Source of the DNA: Chiloscyllium plagiosum
Lineage: Eukaryota
NCBI RefSeq assembly: GCF_004010195.1
Contig: NC_057718.1
Span: 56,747,872-56,801,459 of the forward strand
Reading direction: 5' to 3'
Length of the DNA stretch: 53,588 nucleotides
Below, piece by piece: positions 4,131 through 47,642 of this stretch. Within the stretch, counting starts at the first letter, position 1. The number at the start of each line of letters is the position of its first letter. Under the pieces are notes generated by a model that saw nothing but the letters and a program-made list of their open reading frames with translations, was not told where the DNA came from and ran no database searches. The position numbers and the translations under genes are program-made.

Positions 4131-4827
4131 ATGTTCAAAAAAAACTTTACTTGCAAAGACATTTACTAGTTAACTATTAATATTTTCTCATTGGATCTGG
4201 AACCTATTAAGAAAATGGGTTTTTGACGCACTCCAAAGAGCTCATCCATTTGACCACAATTGTGTATCTATTTCAGTCTTCTTTAGTGAGTTAGATGATC
4301 ACATTGTCAAAACTCCATTAGTAAAGCAAACTTCTCCAAATTGCTTATAACTCTCATCCTTAATTTCTTGGTCACATTCTTTATATTAATTTAATTATTT
4401 GCAACTGATGGAATTAAGGAATTGTCCAAGGAGAAAATGTTGGATCTCTAATTGGAATTTAGAATAAGACATATTAATTACACACCTGAAACAGACAGAA
4501 CTTGAACTCAGGCCTCCTGGCTCAAAGATAGGTACACACTACTTATTGAAATATACAAGATCTTTAGTGAACTTAACAGATTGCCTACCAAAAGGATATT
4601 TCCCCTTTTGGGAGAAAGTAAGGGGACATAGATTAAAACCAAGAGCTATCCAATTTAAGATGAAAGTGAGAACAATCTTTTTCTCTCAGAAGTTTGGTAA
4701 GGCCAAGCTAGATTACTCCTTTGTAAATCAACAATCTAAGCGTAGACAGAAACATTGAGTTGAGGCCACAATTACATAGGCACGATCTTATCAAAATGGC
4801 ACAGAAGACTTGAGAAGCTGAAGCTAA

Positions 4828-5669: not shown

Positions 5670-7089
5670 TAGATTAAATTGAAAAAAGCAACAACAAAAA
5701 AAAGGCTGTGGATTCAGGTTTGTCTCCAGTTTTGAGGAAATAATCCAGACACTTCAGTGTAGCAATAAAAGGATGTTACATTGTCTGACATATTTTTCAA
5801 ACAAGAATATTCAGGATTACAAATAGGCCTGACAGTGTAAAACTTATTTCCGCTAGTTAGGATATCCGGAATAAGATGAGCCCACTTTAAAAGATCAAGA
5901 ACCAACTATTTAGAACTGAGATGAAAAGTTTCATTTAACTTCAGTTAGCTGTCTATTCCCATACCTTGAGAACTTTGCTAACAAAAATCTACAAATGTCA
6001 GCCAGAAATTTTAAATAGGTCGAGACCTAGGTCAAGGGATGAATGTCTGTGGGAGGGACCCTTTCCTATAATGGCTATTGCGCTGCAGCTGCCAGCCCCA
6101 ATATGATGGCAAGCAGCTTTGACAGTTTTAAAATGAACTTTACTTAATCTCTCCCTCTCTAACTTAATGTTTGCTTCTTACCAGTGGGGCTGTTGATCAC
6201 TGACTGCTCTATGTTGGCCACTTGTCTGCTATCCTTCATTGAATAGTGAGCCTGCTCCCTGTAATTAATTGTTCAAGTCTTTTAAAAATCAAAGTGGTTG
6301 CATCTGGAAGATGCCAAGTGGGCTTGGGATCCAGAACAGAACCAATGGATAGGTTCTGAAGCCAGAAGCGAAAATCTTGGCCCTTAGTCTTGAAAATTTA
6401 AATTTCCAGATGCTCGGTGAACTTGTTTTGGTGGCATTGAGGGATCTATTATAAAGGAGGTTCCAGATTTTAACTAACCTATCCTACCAACTCTCTTTAT
6501 CACTTTAAATACCCGATTAGCTCATTCTCAAAAGTTCTAAAGTGACTGTGATCCACATCCATGCACCTGTACACCTAACTTAATCTTTTGAAGAATATCC
6601 TCAAGTGTCGTATATCTTAAACAGAATATAGTACTCTAGATGATGTCTGAACAAAATTGTACATCTAAAGTATCACCTCCACATTTTTGCATTCCAAAAC
6701 CCTTGCGGGAACAAAGACCAACATCTCCCAGTCCTTTTGATTACATTTTGGATCGGTACAACAGCGTTTAATGATTTAGTGTACATGGACATTAAATCAC
6801 TTTGCTCCTCTACTGCTCCCAGTCTTTCACCACTTGAACAAGATGGTGAGCAGCCTTCTATGTGTTACGCTAAGTATTAAACTAAAAATCCTATTCAAAT
6901 TTCCTGCTTTTGTACATGTAGGAGCAACCATCGTTTAGATTTGGTTTGTCTCAAAGGATAATTGAGCCACTGAAATAGTTCATGTTTAATTAGCCAAGTA
7001 AATACTAGAATACAGACACAAATTATACATAGAACACTTAATAGTTTCTAATCAGACAAAATAGAGCAGTACTGAGCGTGACATTAAAA

Positions 7090-11792: not shown

Positions 11793-12404
11793 GGATGAAA
11801 ATTCCATTGACAAGCCCAATATTTGTAGCCCCTCCCTAACTGTCCTTTAATTGAATAGCTCATTAAGCCATTTCAGAGGGCAGTTAATAAGCAACCATAT
11901 TGCTGGGGGACTGAAATCACATGTGGGCCATTCCAGGTAAAGGACAGATTTCCCTTCGAACCAGTTAGTTTTTAAGACAACTGAGGCTTGTTTAAAGGTT
12001 ACCATTACTAAGACTTGGGGCAAAATTTTCCCAGTCCTATAATGGCATGGGTAAGGCAGAAAAGTTGTGAATATACAGCAAGAACGAATTAAATCAGATT
12101 CCCCATCAATAAAACATTTTCTGATGTTTCCCTTGCCTTTCCCTCCCTTTAAGTAGAGACTTCTGAATCACACTGATGAATGGCAACTATTTTATTTCCA
12201 TGCGCTTCAATTCTATTAATGGCTAATTTCACCTCACTTTTATGCAGCTCTCCATCATCCCCCTCTCCTCTGAGAAAATGGATGGCATCAACTTCTAACA
12301 TGAAAGTCAGAGCAGTTACCTGGCTTTACAGTTCACTGCTAGCTTCTCGTGCCTTCAGCTCCAATATCACATAATTTTCCTGCATGCTCCATGGATCTCT
12401 TCCC

Positions 12405-12526
12405 TGAAATAACTCCAAGGGGCTGGTACCGCATCACCAAGTCACACATGGAGAGTTCTTGACACTGATCCAGTTCCTTCAGAGACAGTTCTCAGAATGG
12501 ACAGGACCGCTGACATTCCTGTTCTT
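12405..12526 (-). repeat. Distal half of the Gypsy 3' LTR (split by insertions)
   Basis: Ends ...GTTATTTCA on the minus strand. Shares the 14-bp junction ACATTCCTG(T/C)TCTT with the proximal LTR half at 16279-16394; joined they give a TG...CA unit of about 220 bp. Confidence 0.65.
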
Positions 12527-12762
12527 TTCTTCCTGGGTGAGGCCCAGGCTGCAGCACTAGAGGCAGGCCCAGGACTCAGAGCTCTCACCTCTTGCCTCCT
12601 CCTCTTCTTCTTCCCCTCAGAACACTGGATGTGGGCAGCTGGTCCAGAGTCAGTCCCCTCCCTCTGACACAATCAAGAGGAGAGGTCCTTCACTCTACAC
12701 TGATCCAGCTCCCTCAAGAGCCAGCTCTCAGAGTGAACGGGATCTCTGACACTTCTATTCTT

Positions 12763-15700
12763 TTTTTCTTATTACCCCCACACTACCGCATCACTGCGGT
12801 AGTGCTTATTTTTTCCCCAACACCCATGTTGTGTGTGTGCAGGTATGACACACAGTGAAAGACACAAGGTGCACAAATCTTTATTCAAATTTCCACCATC
12901 AGGAAGAAACGAAACACCCAAGTGGCCTGTGACAAGCAGTACCCTTCACATCAAAGGGCAATGCTGTGTGATCAAACAGAGAAGGGGAGGGCAAGGAATA
13001 AATCAAAATAGAGTTGGAGAGGGAAATTTTACACTCCACTCCCTGCGGCGCCCACCTCTCCCTGAACAACTCCAGGATGTTGGTGGATACCGCATGCTCC
13101 TTTTACAGAGACACCCGGGCTCTAATGTAACCGCAGAAGAGGGGCAGGCAGTCGGCCTTAACGACCCCCTCCACGGCCCGCTGCCCAGGAGCAGACCCAC
13201 AAGGTCTTCAGACCTGCCCTCCCCCTCCGTACTGGGTGCCCAAAGATCAGGAGCGTGCGACTGAAGTGCAACCAAAAGCAGAGGAGGAGGTTTTTGAGAA
13301 AATCAAAAAGGGAGTGCAAACGCCCACACCCAATATATACATGGTCCACAGCACCACAGAACAAGCAGTTGGGTTGGGAGTCCATGACCCACCGCAATCT
13401 GCGATTGCAGGGGACCGCTGCGTGCAGCACCCTCCACCCCAGATCCCCAAGAGAAAGGGGGAGGACTCCGTGTAGAGAGCCCTCCACTGGGGATCCCCAC
13501 AGCCCAGTGGCAAATGGGCACGCCAAGGCGTGTCCGGACGGTGGAGGTGGATGGTGTGCAGCAGCAGTCGATACAGAGCCCGCCTTCTTACTTCCTTAAA
13601 AGGGACAAATCTAAAATTCCGGAGGCGGCTCAGGTTGTGGGGCACAGGCTCCCGCGGGAAGTACGGGACCTTGGGGCCAATGTGAAATTCCATCTGGGGA
13701 GGGGTAAGCGCAGACAGGATTCCACCACACCACCAATGGGCGGCACGGTGACACAGTGGTTAGCAGTGCTGCCTCACAGCGCCAGAGACCCGGGTTCAAT
13801 TCCCGCCTCAGGCGGCTGTCTGTGTGGAGTTTGCACATTCTCCCAGTGTCTGCGTGGGTTTCCTCCGGGTACTCTGGTTTCCTCCCACAGTCCAAAAATG
13901 TGCAGGTTAGGTGAATTGGCCTTGCTAAATTGCTCGTAGTCTTAGGTGAAGGGGTAAATGTAGGGGAATGGGTCTGGGTGGGTTGCGGGTCGGTGTGGAC
14001 TTGTTGGGCATAAGGTCCTGTTTCCACACTGTTAGTAATCTAATCTAAACCTGAGCATCCTCCAACAGGTGTACTACGTCGGGTCCGAGAACCACCGTTT
14101 TAAGGTGTCGGATAGCGAGCAGGGCAGGGGTAGACATCCGGTACGTGGCCACCGCCATGTCCTGCGGCAGCGACCAGCCCAGGCCCCCACCACCCAGCTT
14201 GTCCCCGATCCTGGTCACCCTCGCCGCCACAGCCCTCCCCTCCGACAGCCACCCGAACCCGCGAGGACGGAGGTGCAGATTCCTGGGCAACGGCTCCCTG
14301 ACAATGCCACTTCTGCCGGAGGGTAGGCGCAACGCGATTTGACCATGTTCCAGACAGTGATCAGGTCCTGGTAAAAGACAGGCAGCGTCTTGAGGGTGAC
14401 CTCAAACCGTCACGGTCAACAAACAGGAGCTGCGTGTCGTAGTTGAGGTTACGCACCTGGCGGAAAAAATACGTCACCAGGGCGCACCACCTAGGAGGAG
14501 GCTCGACACAAAGGGATCACTGCAAGGTCTGAAGGTGGAACGTTGCGACCTGGGTGCGGACGCACACCAGCGACTGACCGCCCTCCTCAATAGGGAGACT
14601 CAGAACCTGCACAGTGACCCAGTGCATCTTTTTATCCAAGAAGTCGACCAACATTCTCTGGATGTCAGCGACAAAGCCAAGAGGAGGGACCAAAGTGACC
14701 AGCCGGTACCACAGCATGGCGGCCACCAGCTGGTTTATGAGCAGCACTTGACTCCTGTAAGATAGCACTCGGAACAGTCCTGTCCAGCAGCCTAGGCGAG
14801 CCAAGACTTTGGCTTCCAGCTCCTGCCAGTTCGCCGGCCAGGATTCCTCAGCCGGGCCGAGGTAGACCCCCAGGTAGAGGAGATGGGTGGTACTCCAGCT
14901 GAACCCCAGTAACTCCTCCGGCAGACAGTCCACCCGCCACGGACCGACCAGTAGTCCGGAACATTTGGCCCAGTTGACCCTGGCAAAAGACGCTGCAGAG
15001 TACACGGCCTGGCACTTGTGCATCCTCCCCAGGTCAGCCGGGTCGGTGAAAGTAAGGAGCACATCATCGGCGTAGGCAGAGAGGACCATCCCCGTGCCCG
15101 TGCCACACAGAACCAGCCCCAATAACCTCCTCCGTAAGAGGCGCAGAAAAGGCTCCACGCACAGGGAATACAGCTGGCCGGACGGTGGACAGCTTTGACG
15201 TACCCCTCTCCCAAAGCGAAGGGGCGCTGTCAGGGACCCGTTAACTTTAATCAGACACTCTGCGGCAGCGTACAAAAGTCGGATCCGGGTGATGAACTGC
15301 GTCCCGAACCCAGATGCCCGAGCAGGTACTCATGATCGACCCTGTCGAATGTCTTCTCCTGGTTGAGAGACAGGAAGGCACTCGGCAGACCAGCCCGTTG
15401 ACAGAAATGGATCAGGTCCCGGACCAGGTGGCTGTTGTCGTGTATCCTCTGACCCGGGACTGTATAGGACTGGTCCAGGTGAATCATGTGGGCCAGCATG
15501 GAAGCCAGGCGAGAAGACAACACCCTGGCGAAGATTTTGTAATCCGTGCTGAGGAGGGAGACCGGACGCCAGTTCTTTAAGGAACGAAGGTCCCCCTTCT
15601 TTGGCAGCAGGACGATGACCGCCCTGCGCCAAGAAAGGGGCAGCAGTCCGACATTTAGACACTCCCCCAGGACCTGTGCGTAGTCGATCTCTAGGACGTC

Positions 15701-15779
15701 CCAGAACGCCCTGAAGAACTCCTCAGTCAGCCCGGGGACTTGCCCCTCGAGAGCCAGTCAAGGGCACTGGTCAGCTCTG
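12763..15779 (-). mobile_element. Tx1-clade (L1 superfamily) non-LTR retrotransposon, 5'-truncated, with frameshifts
   Basis: RT motifs KNWRPVSLLSTDY, LSLNQEKTFDRVDHEYL, GRGVRQSCPPSGQLYSLCVEPFL, VLSAYADDVLL, close to Xenopus Tx1 ORF2. C-terminal CCHC knuckle CLFCGAVDHVYIGC. 3' UTR with AATAAA, a hairpin and an A-rich tail. High GC relative to flanks. Confidence 0.9.
13739..14049 (+). mobile_element. Full-length HE1-type V-SINE nested in the Tx1 element
   Basis: tRNA head GGCGGCACGGTGACACAGTGGTTAGC...GGGTTCAATTCCC, V-domain, and CR1-like tail CCTGTTTCCACACTG...TAATCTAATCTAAA. Interrupts Tx1 ORF2. Confidence 0.9.
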
Positions 15780-15791
15780 ACATTCCTTTTC

Positions 15792-16278
15792 TTTTTTTTT
15801 CTGTTTAAACAACAAATTTATTTTCAGAAGTTTAGACAGCAGGTTCTACATAATGATATCATATGATTTGTTGCAACCGTGTATGGTAAACTGCTTCATT
15901 TATTAAACATGCCATATAGAATCTGAATAAATAATGCTACAAAGCCCAAGCTATGTACAAATATCTTGGGCAAAGTTATGTTTACAAACTTATATACAGT
16001 AAAATAAACAAACCAGCCAATGTAATTGTCCAAATTATGCAACAAAACAAAATGTCACAAGTGATCGAGTTGATGCATAGAAACAAAAATCAATGCTGTA
16101 AATAGTTCAAAAGTTTGTTTATACAACTTCAGTATCTTTTTTTAAAAAACAAATCAATTTACACTTAATGCTTAAATATATCTTCATAAAATTTGACTTT
16201 AGAAAACAAGCAAAAATTGTACAGTTTGAGATAAAAATTACAGGAATTGGTGTTTTAAAATATCACCAAATCCAGACA
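15792..16278 (-). pseudogene. Putative retrocopied mRNA 3'-UTR fragment with poly(A)
   Basis: AT-rich and non-coding. Minus-strand AATAAA (15817-15822) lies 16 nt before an A9 tail (15792-15800). Flanked by copies of the LTR target motif at 15780-15793 and 16279-16292. Parent gene not identified. Confidence 0.55.
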
Positions 16279-16394
16279 ACATTCCTGCTCTTATCTGTCA
16301 GCCAGGACTCCCTGATTGGACCAGACTAACAGCTCTAATCAGGGAACTCATATCCTATGAGGCCCACCTGGCTGACCTCGTTACAATCACTACA
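16279..16394 (-). repeat. Proximal half of the Gypsy 3' LTR
   Basis: Starts TGTAGTGATTG on the minus strand immediately after a polypurine tract GGGGGGGAGGGA (16395-16406). Contains CCAAT and the imperfect inverted repeat TCCCTGATT...AATCAGGGA. Confidence 0.8.
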
Positions 16395-18137
16395 TCCCTC
16401 CCCCCCAAGTCAGAGAACATAGGCTGTTTTTTTTTTGTAGCTCTTTCTGGTACATTTTATCACTGAGTCAGCTGCCTCCAACTCTGCTCCAGGCTATGTG
16501 TAACACAGGTAGCTTGCCTCTTGCGCCTGGAGTGTCTCAGAAGAAATTCTTGCTCCTCTTCAGGTAGCAGAGATGTTGAGGCAGTGACATCTGCCGTGTC
16601 CATTTTAAATTCAGAGGTATCTTCAAAGCTGGTCAGAAACGGAGAACCCATGGATTCGCGAACAGTCGGAAAGACTGTCGAGGAGTTGGTCACGTTTTGC
16701 TCCTGCTCGGTTTGTGAGTTTGCAGCATTCATTTGGTCCACGTGCCTGTTCAGGATCATCTCACTAACTGAATGTTATACGTCACTGGACCTGACCTCAC
16801 ATCAACCATGTAGGGACATTCCCATGGCTCCAACAAGAAACTTTGTCTCCTGAAGTAAACAGTCTCTCTTGCTTACTGAAGTCACTTCTGACATTGTATT
16901 CCTGATGCTGTTTCACCCTTCCCCCTCCAGGTCCAAGATGATCAGATTTAACCTGGTGCAGAGTCTTCTTCCCATTAGCAACTCTGCTGGAGAAATCCCT
17001 TTACATGTGTGAGAGGTTGCCCTGTAAACAAATAGGAACCAGGACAATTTGGTGTCTCGTGAAGCTGCATGTGGTTTCTTTAAGCCTGCCTTCAAAGTTT
17101 GGACTGTTGGATGATATGGAGCTGTCCCTGTATGACGGATACCATTGGACTCTACGAAAAACTCAAATTTCCTGCTGATAAATGACAGTCCGTTATCTGT
17201 GACCAATACTTCTGAGAGTCTGTGTATTGCGAAAAATGCATACAGTTTTACAATCATCATCCCCATGTTTGACAACTGACCTCTCTGCATATCCAAACAA
17301 TTTGAGTGGGCATCCACAATGACTAAGAACATTGAGCCCATGAAAGGACCTGCATAGTTGATGTGCAACTGAGTCCAGGGTTTACCTGGTCATTCCCATG
17401 AATGTAGGGGAGCTGCTGATGCTAGTTTTTGTCCTAGTTGGTTCTGTACTCTAGGCAGCGACTCACCAACACAGTTATGTCTGTATTCAATCTTGATCAT
17501 AAGACATAACTCCTCAACATCTTCATTTTGGAAACCCTAGTAGGGTTCAGCCAGTATCTGGTTATGACTTTTACTTGAGACAATCACTTTTGCTCCCCAT
17601 AACAATATGCTGTCCTCTATTAGTCTCGTAGATTCAAAAAGGTTTCAATTCTGGTTGTGATGGCCCTTTGGATTCTCCGTTCATCGTCAGTTGTTTCAGT
17701 TTTACAGAGGCCAAATCTTTCTGCGTCTAAAGTCTGATATTGTCAGTTGTAATTGGAAGCGTGTCCTGAAAATTTAAAACCATTACTATCTCTTCCAGAG
17801 GCGGTACCACAGTGGTGTATCAGTCAGCGGAAGACAGCTCAATGTACCTGCATGTGTTATTTGGCCTCCGGATGGTGTTCCAACTTGTAATTAAATGCAG
17901 TATTAGAGCCCACTGCTGAATTCAGCCTGAAGCTATGGGCAGCACTGTTTTGTCCTATAAGTACACCGAGCAGAGTTCTGTGGTCCGTTATTACTACAAA
18001 TTTGTGTCCGTAAAGGTATCAGTGGAACTTCCTGACTCCAAATATGATTGCCAAACCTTCTTTTCTGTCTGGGCTTATTTATGCTCTGCATCAGCCAAAG
18101 TCCTGGATGCATACGCTACTGGATGTTCCTCTCCATT

Positions 18138-18318
18138 ATCAAATAGTGTGTCACTGGAAAAGCACAGCAGGTCAGGCAGCATCCAAGTAGAAGGAATTCC
18201 TGATGAAGGGCTTATGCCTGAAATGTCAACTCTCCTGCTCCTCAGATGCTGCCTGACCTGCTGTGCTTTTCCAGCGCCACACTTTTCGACTCTGATCTCC
18301 AGCCCTCGCTTCCTCTTA
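18138..18318 (+). mobile_element. Penelope-like terminal-repeat insertion with partial fold-back, inside the Gypsy
   Basis: 13-bp TSD GTTCCTCTCCATT (18125-18137 / 18319-18331), inverted arms, and degenerate hammerhead CTGATGAAGGGCTTATGCCTGAAATGTC from 18200. Confidence 0.75.
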
Positions 18319-19683
18319 GTTCCTCTCCATTGGGCTACCTATGAGCTAATATATCCCTCAGCCGTACAGCGAGGCAATGCTGGTCAATACCAGAATTCAT
18401 GAGAGATTATAATGTGCCGACACCTTAGAGGATGATAGCTGTTTTTTCATTTCCCTAAAAGCTATGGCTTGGCTATATGACTATTTCCAAGGCTGACCCT
18501 TTTTAAAGAATTGGCACAAAGTGCCAGGGTGGAGGCCAGGTTGTGTATAAACTGTCCATATTAATTCTCCGGCCCAAGGAAAGACCTAGGTTCCATTATA
18601 GACTCCGGAGTTAGGGCACCTTTAATTGCTTTTACTATCTTCAACGCATGTAAATCGGTCTTGTCGACTCTATAGCCTAAGCAGGTCACTTGGGAGTGCC
18701 TGGGCACACATTTTCCCCCTTCTAAGGTGCATACCTGCCTTGGAGAAGCATTTCAGGACTATGTCCAAGCTCTAAGTGCTCCTTATTGGTCTTCCTTGCT
18801 ATTAGTACATCTAGATAAATGGCAACCTGAAGCATGTCTTATAAAATGTTCTCCATCATCTGCTGAAAAATTGCACAAGCTGACAATCCCCAAAATGGCC
18901 CTTAAAGATATTAATTGTAGCATATTTCTGAAAATCCTCATTTAACTGGAACTGCATGTATAGATGGTTCATGTCCAGCTTCGTGAAAGGCAGCCATCCT
19001 AAAAACTTTGCATATAAATCCTCTATATGAGAGAACTGGGTATTTATCCAGCTGTGGAAAGCAGTTTACCATTTGTTTAAAATCCCCACAAAGGCCAACC
19101 AACCTGTTGGGCTTCACAATCAGCAAACTGGACAGGGTTTGATGATTCCTTCAGTTTCTAGCCTTCTGATTTCTGCCTCTATTTTTGCCCATAAGGCAAA
19201 TGGCACCAGGTGGGCATCACAGAATTGGGGAATTACTTTCTGGTCATCATGCAAGGTGGCGCTGCCTCCTTTGATAGTCTCTAGACCTTTCTGAAAAATT
19301 TTTGGATATTTAATTTGGGTTTCACTGAGGCAGCTATTTTCTAATCGAAGAATGTTGAGCCAATCTAGGTGAATTTTTCTCAATCAAATTTGCCCCATTA
19401 AGCTGGGGTCAAGCCTTTCACTCCAATCAGTGGTATTGAAAGAAATGTTTTTCAACAAGAGACCAGAACCGAAGTCATACCCTTAATCTGTAAAGGTTTT
19501 CTAGTTTAGGGTCTCAGTCTAGCAGAGGTCTTGTTTAAACTTAACAGTTGGAGTCCATAGCGAATTTTGTCAAAGACTGGTTCTGCGATCACTGAAATGG
19601 CCACAGTAGTACTGACCGCCGTTAGAACCTGGTGACCATTTCACCAGATGTTTATTTTGATTGCTTAGCAACATCCAAACAAG

Positions 19684-26374: not shown

Positions 26375-27103
26375 GAGTGTCTGTGTCTGTCTGTGTAGTG
26401 CAAAAGAGTCACCTGCAGTGTCACATGAACCCAAGGTCCCGGTTGAGGCCATCCCCATGGGTACCGAACTTGGCTATCAGCCTCTGCTTGGCCACTTTTC
26501 GCCTGTCCCGAAGTCGCCTTGGAGGATGGTCACCCGAAGGTTTGAGGTCAAATGTCCTGGACCGCTGAAGTGTTCTCCGACTGGGAGGGAACACTCCTGT
26601 CAGTTGATTGTTGTGGTGTCCATTCATCCATTGCCATAGCTTCTGCTTGGTCTTGCCAATGCACCATGCCTCAGGACATCCTTGACTGCAGCATATGAGA
26701 CAAATAGATGAGGCATGATACATTGGCGAGACCAAGCAGAGGCTATGGCAATGGATGAATGGACACCGCACAACAATCAGCAGACAGGAGTGTTCTCTCC
26801 CAGTTGTAGAACACTTCAACGGTTGGGACATTCGACCTGGGACCTTCAGGTGACCGTCCTCCAAGCTGGACTTCGGCATAGGCAACAACGAAAAGTAGGC
26901 GAAAGTGAGGACTGCAGATGCTGGAGATCAGAGTCAAGATTAGAGTGGTGCTGGAAAAGCACAGCAGGTCAGGCAGCATTCAAGGAGCAGGAAAATCGAC
27001 GTTTTGATGGTCGAGCAGAGGCTGAAAGCCAAGTTCAGTACCCATGGGGATGGCCTCAACTGGGATCTTGGGTTCACGTCACAATACAGGTGACCCCATT
27101 GCA

Positions 27104-33967: not shown

Positions 33968-35130
33968 GACATAGAAACATTGGAAATAGGAGCAGCACTA
34001 GGCCATTCAGCCCTTTGAGCCTGCTCCACCATTCAATATGATCACAGCTGATCGATCTACTCAGTACGCTCTTCCTGCTTTCTCCCATATCCTATGATCC
34101 CTTTAGCTCCAAGAACTATATCTAACTCGTTAAAAAAAATTCAGTGTCTTTTTCCTCAACAACCTTCTATGGCAGAGAATTCCACAGGCTCACCACTCTC
34201 TGAAAAAAGAAAATTCTCTTCATCTGAATGGCCTATCCTGATTCCTTAGACTTGATTCCTAGTTCTGGACTCCAGGTTATTGGAAGCATCCTTCCGCACC
34301 TGCCCTGTTCATTCCTGTTAGAATTTTATCGGCTTCTATGAGATCCTCCCCCTCACTCTTCCAAACTCTAGTGAATATGGTCCTAACTGATCCATCATAC
34401 ATCATCCTACCATTCCAGGACTCAATCTGATACATCTTCATTGCACCCCTTCTATCACCAGGCCATCCATCCTCAGATCAAGGCAAAAACTGCATAAAAG
34501 TACTCCAGGTGTGGTTTCACCAAGGTTCTGTACAATTGCAGCACGACATCCCTGCGCCTGTACTTGAATCCTCTCACTATGAAGGCCAACATACCATTTG
34601 CCTTCTTCACCACCTGCAAGTTTACTTTCAACAACCTCTGGATGTAGGTTTGCTTGCTGAGCTGGAAGGTTCATTTTCAGAAGTTTCGTCACCATACTAA
34701 GTAACATCTTCAGTGAGCCGCCGAACGAAGCACTGCTGATGATTCCTGCGTTCTATTTATAGGTTTGGGAAACACCAGCAGTGCTTCTTCCGGAGGCTCA
34801 CTGAAGATGCTACCTAGTATGGTGATGAAATGTCTGAAAATGAACCTTCCAGCTCAGCAAGCAAATCTACATCCAGAACCTCAACCTGAGTTACAAATCT
34901 ACTCAAACCTCGCTTTCAACCTCTCAATTACTAACATTCTACTTCATTTGTCCTGCATTTGCCCACTCACTCAATTTGTCTAAAACACAGTGAAGCATTT
35001 TAACATCCTCCTCACAGTGCATCCTCTCACCCAGCTTTGTGTCATCTGCAAATTTGAATATAGTACATTTAGTTCCCTCATCTAAATAATTCAAAATGTG
35101 TTGTGAATTGCTGGCATCAGGCACTGATGC
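33968..35130 (-). mobile_element. CR1 LINE RT/3' fragment, interrupted by a Penelope fold-back
   Basis: NYLDEGTKCTIFKFADDTKLG (ORF 34939-35124); CR1 3' UTR at the left end. Confidence 0.8.
34633..34912. mobile_element. Penelope-like fold-back insertion (distinct family) with hammerhead cores
   Basis: Inverted arms 34637-34738 / 34776-34877. CTGAAGA-TGCTACC TAGTAT GGTGAT-GAAA-TGTC at 34801-34834 with a mirror copy at 34680-34713. Possible 8-bp TSD CTTTCAAC. Confidence 0.7.
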
Positions 35131-44471: not shown

Positions 44472-44977
44472 GGAGGAGAAAGTGAGGACTGCAGATGCTG
44501 GAGATCAGAGCTGAAAATGTGTTGCTGGAAAAGCGCAGCAGGTCAGGCAGCATCCAAGGAACAGGAGAATCGACGTTTCGGGCATAAGCCCTTCTTCAGG
44601 AATGAGGAAAGTGTGCCTAGCAGGCTAAGATAAAAGGTAAAAGGAGGAGGGACTTGGGGGAGGGGCGTTGGAAATGCGATAGGTGGAAAGAGGTCAAGGT
44701 GAGGGTGATAGGTCAGACTGGGGTGGGGGCGGAGAGGTCAGGAAGAAGATTGCGGGTTAGGAAGGCGGACTCAGCACCGCCTTCCTAACTTGCAATCTTC
44801 TTCCTGACCTCTCCGTCCCCACTCCACTCCGACCTATCACCCTCACCTTGACCTCCTTCCACCTATCGCATTTCCAACGCCCCTCCCCCAAGTCCCTCCT
44901 CCCTACCTTTTATCTTAGCCTGCTGGGCACACTTTCCTCATTCCTGAAGAAGGGCTTATGCCCGAAACGTCGATTCT
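44472..44977. mobile_element. Young Penelope-like fold-back insertion, ~205-bp inverted arms
   Basis: 14-bp TSD CCAATTAAGAAGTT (44458-44471 / 44978-44991). Arms 44564-44768 and 44777-44979 with an 8-nt loop. Confidence 0.88.
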
Positions 44978-44979
44978 CC
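44937..44979 (+). ncRNA. Minimal type I hammerhead ribozyme motif; identical core on the minus strand at 44564-44603
   Basis: CTGAAGA (44944-50) A GGGC-TTAT-GCCC GAAA CGTC: intact CUGANGA and GAAA cores, 4-bp helix II, GUC cleavage triplet (cut after 44971), palindromic ACGT helix III. Helix I pairing is weak. Confidence 0.7.
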
Positions 44980-47426: not shown

Positions 47427-47642
47427 AGAGAAAGTGAGGACTGCAGATGCTGGAGACCAGAGTTGAAAAATGTGGTGCTGGAAAAACACAGCCTGGAAAA
47501 GCACAGCAGGTCAGGCAGCATCCAAGGAGCAGGAGAATCGACGTTTCGGGCAGGAAGAAGGGCTTATGCCCGAAACATCGATTCTCCTGCTCCTCGGATG
47601 CTGCCTGGCCTGCTGTGTTTTTCCAGCACCACATTTTTCAAC
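47427..47642. mobile_element. Penelope-like fold-back insertion
   Basis: 12-bp TSD TTTATGTAACAC (47415-47426 / 47643-47654). Arms about 47461-47551 and 47566-47643. Confidence 0.82.

Follow-up and report, generated by a model that had tools for sequence, protein, structure and literature searches.

The window analysed in this study is the whole 53,588-nt stretch of Chiloscyllium plagiosum DNA at positions 56,747,872 to 56,801,459 of NC_057718.1, on contig C9 of the 3.56-Gb genome. The types of repeat and a protein match of 62% to a ray agree with a cartilaginous fish. It contains a Gypsy-type retrotransposon whose 3' long terminal repeat (LTR) is split by a Tx1-clade long interspersed nuclear element (LINE) and by a retrocopy of a host RNA. 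We found that this Tx1 family inserts preferentially at one site of the LTR, which lies in a putative core promoter. Copies compared across the genome carry locus numbers such as L028, and contigs carry labels such as C24. On the minus strand, the Gypsy-type element consists of pol (reverse transcriptase (RT), RNase H and integrase; 16928..19407), a polypurine tract (16395..16408; an identical purine run stands ahead of LTR copies that follow pol) and the LTR. The decayed pol, which was recognized by tblastn with P0110, by the Pfam profiles rve (E value of 3.4e-6) and RT_RNaseH and by the domains of its relatives, is interrupted by stops, frameshifts and a short interspersed nuclear element (SINE). 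The integrase relatives carry Ty3/Gypsy-type pol domains, and the RT-RNase H-integrase order, the polypurine tract and the TG...CA LTR are also traits of Ty3/Gypsy elements. Within the window the 3' LTR alone is present, and no 5' LTR was found.

The LTR is about 238 bp long, and on the minus strand its TG start is at 16394 and its CA end at 12405. The left (U3) part (16279..16394; CCAAT at 16314-16319) matches positions 1-116 of the intact LTR L028 at 87% and ends in target copy 1 (16279..16294), the 16-nt duplicated target that begins in a TATA-like box. It is followed by a retrocopy, truncated at its 5' end, that derives from the 3' end of a polyadenylated host RNA (15801..16278; 98% to L102, with the source on C24), and by the poly(A) tail of this retrocopy (15792..15800). 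Target copy 2 (15775..15791) runs 5 nt beyond the usual end, according to an alignment of 19 copies, and is joined through GAG to a 5'-truncated Tx1 with RT, zinc finger, 3' untranslated region (UTR) and A tail (12763..15777). This Tx1 corresponds to positions 4287-7040 of L035, the full-length copy used as reference. Then come target copy 3 with the LTR-derived head of a full-length Tx1 (12697..12762; 89% to LTR positions 106-167, with the extra T typical of heads) and the first ~165 nt of the Tx1 5' UTR with a short A-rich stretch at its end (12532..12696), which is followed by open reading frames ORF1 and ORF2 in L035 and most other matches. Target copy 4 and the right LTR part with the initiator-like site, R/U5 and the CA end (12405..12526; 83% to L028 positions 106-187) complete the LTR. 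All these features are on the minus strand.

The first-pass annotation of this DNA had described four copies of a 14-nt motif at the block junctions. The blocks, their order and their coordinates hold, but the count alone is no better than chance: the window has three matches at two or fewer mismatches against 1.67 expected, at least three were reached in 24 of 100 shuffles, and the fourth copy (12749-12762) requires three mismatches. We dropped the count as evidence, and the case for targeting therefore rests on genome-wide evidence. The LTR that had been rebuilt by removing the inserts was borne out, as positions 1-116 and 106-187 of the intact L028 correspond to 16394-16279 and 12523-12442, and many of the 29 other matches to the LTR left part read through the site. 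Some details needed correction. The duplicated stretch is about 16 nt (16279-16294), not 14 nt, and the 5' joint of Tx1 is GAG instead of TCAGAG (other copies have AGGAGCTGACC, the window has CAGAGCTGACC). The 170-bp block of unknown origin is the start of the Tx1 5' UTR and leads into ORF1, and the 65-bp LTR copy, taken for a separate insert, is the head of a full-length Tx1. The AT-rich insert was correctly regarded as RNA-derived with a poly(A) tail; it is now placed as the 3' end of a host RNA with its source on C24.

The exact 20-mer of the Tx1 3' end occurs at 4738 genomic places, and a 30-nt LTR motif at 2629 places with at most one mismatch. On the LINE side, we used the first 30 3' ends or the best-scoring long copies; on the LTR side, the 30 motif matches that come first along the genome. 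Exact AACAGGRRTGT is present 8-38 nt downstream of 360 of the 4738 exact 3' ends (0 in the reversed control). The target motif at two or fewer mismatches flanks 15 of the first 30 3' ends, compared with 0.63 in shuffles, and when these 3' ends are grouped into 17 clusters, 15 of the clusters are within the LTR, compared with 0 of 32 control stretches. Among the 39 best-scoring long copies, 21 are in the LTR, three have the motif only and 15 have neither. In the LTR sample, 8 of 30 carry the Tx1 family at the site, all in the LTR orientation and none in the opposite one; one more has an apparent related 3' end and another has an A run with a duplication. Where the LTR breaks at positions 90-119 and continues into Tx1, the two are on the same strand in 44 cases and on opposite strands in one. 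In 28 of 37 loci, the 5' junction follows the GATA within the TATA-like box at a distance of 15-17 nt. Occupied LTRs include 3' LTRs and one 5' LTR (L120). Non-random flanks of Tx1 and intact LTRs contiguous over the site leave little doubt that the Tx1 family targets the LTR, as the earlier annotation had proposed, while overlooking the TATA-like box, the element's own 5' end and the non-strict preference. By Kojima's criterion (PMC4494074), a Tx1 family is target-specific when one sequence type is present in more than 20% of flanks. The LTR accounts for more than that in both the 17 clusters and the 39 long copies. The specificity is a strong but incomplete preference, not a strict one.

Off-target copies have duplications of about 12-18 nt. 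Several of these are target-like (TTAAACAGGGCT, TTAAACTGGCT, ATAAGGACTGGGG) with TAAA-C-A/T-GG-like cores, and others are not. Judging from the target-like ones, the endonuclease seems to read DNA sequence at the target. Alternatively, the element may be tethered to proteins of the LTR promoter (TBP/TFIID) or drawn to open chromatin, with no reading of DNA by the endonuclease. The position of the nick in the TATA-like box, the variable sequence of occupied targets and some off-target sites unlike the motif (L037) are in line with tethering. However, several of the target-like off-target duplications have no surrounding LTR, and targets inside arrays, far from U3 variants, show an unchanged junction. 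Moreover, the purified endonuclease of Xenopus Tx1L nicks nearly only its own target (PMC1950540). We consider tethering quite unlikely.

Some further observations were made around the target site. One Tx1 copy lies in Gypsy pol sequence outside the LTR, beside a SINE (L046, 6812-9000). Inserts that consist of an A run only, with LTR duplications of 10-70 nt, were seen in L137 (1530-1753) and just past position 8000 in L031, L036, L060, L064 and L066; we take these to be extreme 5' truncations with long target duplications. A second LTR subfamily has the target ...CAGGAGATT... and a different right half, and the equivalent position is occupied there (L164, L173, L064, L062 and L191). The same LTR site also holds sequences similar to the 3' end but more diverged (L132, 1542-1690; L005, 1627-1820; L113, 400-950), which suggests that one or more related LINE families share the target.

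Full-length Tx1 copies are about 7 kb long and composed of a 5' UTR, ORF1, ORF2, a 3' UTR and an A tail, with target duplications of about 16 nt. The 5' UTR (650 nt) is long, GC-rich and repetitive. ORF2 has an N-terminal apurinic/apyrimidinic endonuclease (APE)-type domain, an RT and a C-terminal zinc finger (Pfam Exo_endo_phos, 1e-10; RVT_1, 1e-15; zf-RVT, 2.5e-4). The zinc knuckle of ORF1 (zf-CCHC) is weak, with an E value of 0.007 that falls under the curated cut-off. Most of 20 long copies retain intact catalytic motifs (FLQETH, GGDFN, SRIDR and TDHH). The best named match of ORF2 is Xenopus Tx1 ORF2, with 52% identity over 622 amino acids from the endonuclease to the RT; the identity is 53% to turtle proteins and 37-41% to the fish proteins found. 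By this identity ranking, the element is assigned to the Tx1 clade. At non-CpG sites, long copies diverge by about 3% from the family majority and the window copy by 4.7% (66/1402).

Intact LTRs have CCAAT, then GATATAAAC or variants of it, and then a TTCACTC-like site. The A of this site is 29 nt past the first T of the TATA-like box in 13 of 18 intact LTRs, so that, by textbook spacing, the two are a putative TATA box and initiator. The duplication starts inside the box, and U3 stays intact upstream. Thus, every insert lies between the box and the start site. When window positions 12530-12700 were used as query, 40 places were scored and 29 cut out for inspection, and most of these run on into the Tx1 5' UTR and ORF1. 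Because ORF1 follows, 12532-12696 was ruled out as a separate element or a part of a longer LTR subfamily. Over all loci, an LTR-like head precedes 30 of 34 starts of the 5' UTR, and a shortened variant precedes the other four. An extra T is found in 8 of 18 plain (A-type) heads and a GT-type microsatellite in 23 of 29 heads, whereas neither is found in 45 LTR right halves. Since they are confined to heads, the distal part of the head appears to be inherited with the element. In 11 of the 29 heads, Tx1 3' UTR sequence is fused before a shortened LTR-derived head. The junction of this second head type is common across loci (L035, 880-984; L110, L120, L123, L099 and L087), and its start is often that of neighbouring units.

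The proximal part of the head behaves differently from the distal part. We compared heads with the LTR of their own locus in ten loci: 3' ends were sought for 11 head loci, seven of which were used together with L107, L113 and the window. Three loci in which no Tx1 end was reached (L188, L189 and L190) and one that ends in another LTR subfamily (L191) were left out. Between the duplication and the initiator-like site lie 15 nt that are similar to the LTR of the same locus; out of 27 others, the numbers scoring as well were 0, 2, 4, 7, 2, 4, 0, 0, 8 and 19. The next 20 nt are mostly unlike it (0, 23, 4, 0, 23, 20, 18, 14, 6 and 22). In some examples, head and local LTR have private deletions in common. 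We infer, as the simplest reading, that the RNA starts near the initiator and that the preceding stretch is copied from the local target, to which the cDNA is joined by homology. It is also conceivable that the same targeting goes with an internal promoter of the element, and that the head is left over from a single ancient insertion, serving as a homology arm only or having no function. The long, GC-rich and repetitive 5' UTR and the weak TATA variants of many occupied LTRs agree with an internal promoter, and R1 elements are thought to possess promoters of their own (PMC2718515). Yet a head or its variant is present on all 34 starts of the 5' UTR, and the switch from local to element-borne sequence coincides with the initiator-like site. 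The second head type has acquired upstream Tx1 3' UTR sequence, as expected for transcripts that start upstream. We therefore regard an internal promoter as unlikely, and promoter borrowing with homology-guided 5' joining as the likely explanation of these signatures.

A single LTR can hold ten or even more Tx1 inserts, stacked head to tail. Their 5' starts were compared in 154 loci, after 31 self, overlapping or non-Tx1 loci had been dropped. The starts agree within 3 nt in 88 of 419 unit pairs within a locus (21%) and in 533 of 31436 pairs between loci (1.7%). Within-locus pairs with a shared start have 9.5 rare shared variants per kb in the first 30 nt, 2.2-2.7 up to 120 nt, 0.6 at 120-250 nt and none beyond, compared with 0.7 per kb in the first 30 nt for pairs of different loci with the same start. 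This gradient agrees with a model in which incoming cDNA pairs with the unit already present immediately behind the upstream target. Tandem duplication of whole units was ruled out as the source of shared starts, since the shared variants fade with distance. A start at window-copy position 2596 that seemed to be shared across loci turned out to be spurious, owing to a deletion in that copy. An A-rich run comes after 38 of 105 units truncated at the 3' end, and most of these units stop close to an internal AATAAA or past it. This suggests early polyadenylation and a requirement for poly(A) only.

A few insertion events might also account for the arrays, if a Tx1-bearing Gypsy element or LTR had been copied genome-wide and the arrays had arisen by tandem duplication of DNA or by misassembly. 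Within a locus, units do have starts in common and a higher similarity, exact duplications occur in a few cases (L078 and L114), and a locus on C25 resembles a mosaic. On the other hand, 5' truncation points vary among loci (37 junctions at positions 5718-7003), the shared variants do not span the unit, and units are unlike in 3' end and tail. The duplicated targets contain locus-private changes, and a host retrocopy of 1.7% divergence occupies the same site. Descent from a few events is very improbable and largely refuted.

This host retrocopy, the AT-rich insert of the window, differs from its source on C24 by six substitutions and two single-base gaps in 478 nt. It has AATAAA 17 nt before its end, there is no genomic A run at the source, and it is joined to the target through ATG(T). 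None of seven reading frames near the source gave a Pfam match above cut-off. The retrocopy is less diverged than the window Tx1 and lies upstream of it, in keeping with use of the upstream target copy by later inserts. A G-to-A change is common to target copies 1, 2 and 4 and absent from copy 3. Thus, copy 3, the head and the UTR piece probably arrived behind Tx1 as 3' read-through, and we slightly favour two events over three.

The locus on C25 (L123, G000:C25:15151300-15161200; also L101) has the LTR left part, the 5' half of a full-length Tx1 and, joined via ATATC, 1000 nt of the C24 RNA. It continues with the exact junction of A tail and target seen in the window and then with a Tx1 body that has no tail or LTR right half. 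The upstream half of its RNA has no mismatch to C24, and the downstream half has one mismatch to the window. Its Tx1 is window-like over 57 nt only. The variants common to the window and C25 include CpG decay typical of the window copy. C25 may be a mosaic produced during assembly, or else a rare chimera made from several templates. It is unlikely that the window insert is a single retrocopy of this chimera, because the variants exclusive to the two are limited to the first 57 nt of Tx1 and one site beyond.

Taken together, we propose the following mechanism, to which as a whole we give a probability of about 0.7. The Tx1-clade LINE would insert by target-primed reverse transcription at a single site of a Gypsy-type LTR. 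Its endonuclease would nick the bottom strand in the TATA-like box at GA/TATAAAC, within a base or two, and the top strand would be joined about 16 nt downstream of the nick. The resulting 16-nt duplication would preserve an upstream target, so that new inserts accumulate head to tail. The site, the orientation, the duplication length, the arrays and the incomplete preference in this scheme are established. The upstream copy retains CCAAT and TATA, and the head of a full-length element is the LTR sequence that normally comes next; the LTR promoter may thus start the Tx1 transcript at its usual initiator. The LTR-derived head would let the cDNA end pair with the target to form the 5' joint, and pairing with a resident Tx1 piece would account for the common 5' starts of stacked inserts. 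The machinery would require little besides poly(A) and may deliver other RNAs as well, both those of the host and Tx1 RNAs that are short or polyadenylated early. As for the window, the older insert would be Tx1, probably with a head piece of a neighbouring Tx1 as read-through, and the younger one would be the retrocopy in the upstream target.

Several points weigh against this proposal. Neither the LTR nor the motif was found at 15 of 39 long copies, and the same is true of 1 of 17 clusters; the Tx1 family is absent from the site in 22 of the 30 sampled LTRs. The samples were drawn from the first contigs or the best matches, and the assembly has gaps and in one place or more (C25) looks like a mosaic. 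The sequence of the TATA-like box varies; the window has GATAAGAAC, as do many occupied LTRs, many of which may therefore be poor promoters. Ten loci enter the head test, and the window shows no effect in it (19 of 27 others are as good). The signs of promoter borrowing are sequence signatures, and the 650-nt 5' UTR could hold a promoter of its own. A bolder version is that the element is an obligate promoter parasite, a promoterless LINE that cuts the TATA box of the LTR and rebuilds the core promoter with its own head, which also serves as homology arm. Its second head would have evolved to match LTRs that 3' ends of the element already fill, and it would have broken at least a quarter of the LTRs of the Gypsy family, possibly helping to end the activity of that family. 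We consider this version tentative and rather doubtful.

Targeting of other transposons, and a preference for LTRs, are known in the Tx1 clade. Tx1L of Xenopus laevis inserts in the DNA transposon Tx1D (PMC1950540, PMC6719617), and a hairpin loop of its endonuclease contributes to target choice (PMC1950540). Tx1L (YTX2_XENLA, ORF2) is likewise an APE-type Tx1-clade LINE with one site in another transposon. Its target is a DNA transposon, whereas that of the shark family is a Gypsy LTR promoter, and the shark loop (FVRPGVGVSR) is three residues shorter than that of Tx1L (YVRVRDGHVSQSR). Unlike Tx1L, the shark family has an incomplete preference and thousands of copies in arrays. In crocodilians, Tx1 families prefer Mariner and Harbinger, and Tx1-8_Crp and Tx1-4_AMi prefer LTR retrotransposons; the same paper raises transcription from the flanking target for SINEU (PMC4494074). 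These two resemble the shark family in their LTR preference; the text names no LTR superfamily or position. Their group (Tx1-Mar) clusters with Keno, whereas the shark ORF2 is nearer to Xenopus Tx1 than to the fish proteins.

In Drosophila, tandem arrays of R1 arise when new copies enter the 14-bp duplication on the upstream side, and some R1 copies lie outside the target; R2 is transcribed together with its target, and annealing of target-derived 5' RNA yields precise junctions (PMC2718515). R1 and R2 belong to other clades and use 28S rDNA targets and RNA polymerase I (Pol I). Their target-derived RNA is from upstream of the nick, whereas that of the shark family would be from downstream and would rebuild a Pol II core promoter. 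In its target choice the shark family acts like Tx1L, and its arrays and probable co-transcription are like those of R1/R2. In a literature search that did not extend to Repbase, Dfam or subscription journals, we found no paper describing a shark Tx1 family or one that inserts at the TATA box of a Gypsy element. The promoter target and the downstream-derived head are the new aspects.

These observations would extend the known targets of site-specific LINEs to a Pol II core promoter that belongs to a different retroelement. The poorly understood step of 5' joining is recorded in thousands of natural insertions; locally copied sequence declines with distance from a shared 5' start, which provides direct evidence from the genome that new cDNA pairs with DNA already in place. 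With a loop shorter than that of Tx1L and a new 16-nt target, the APE endonuclease offers a natural comparison for sequence reading. The machinery may also be of interest as it places arbitrary poly(A) RNA just behind a promoter.

An Rfam search of window positions 12300-16500 gave no match. A SINE on the plus strand (13731..14048) is a later insertion within the window Tx1, in the opposite orientation; it appears as a gap in the comparison with other copies, is repeated in the window and has no relation to the target site. A 45-bp inversion (14114-14158) within this Tx1 copy adjoins it. Near-perfect inverted repeats made of dispersed repeats are present at 44564-44979, 34637-34877, 47493-47626 and 26612-26770, with arms of up to 126 nt that are 8 nt apart and additional outer arms of 76 nt.

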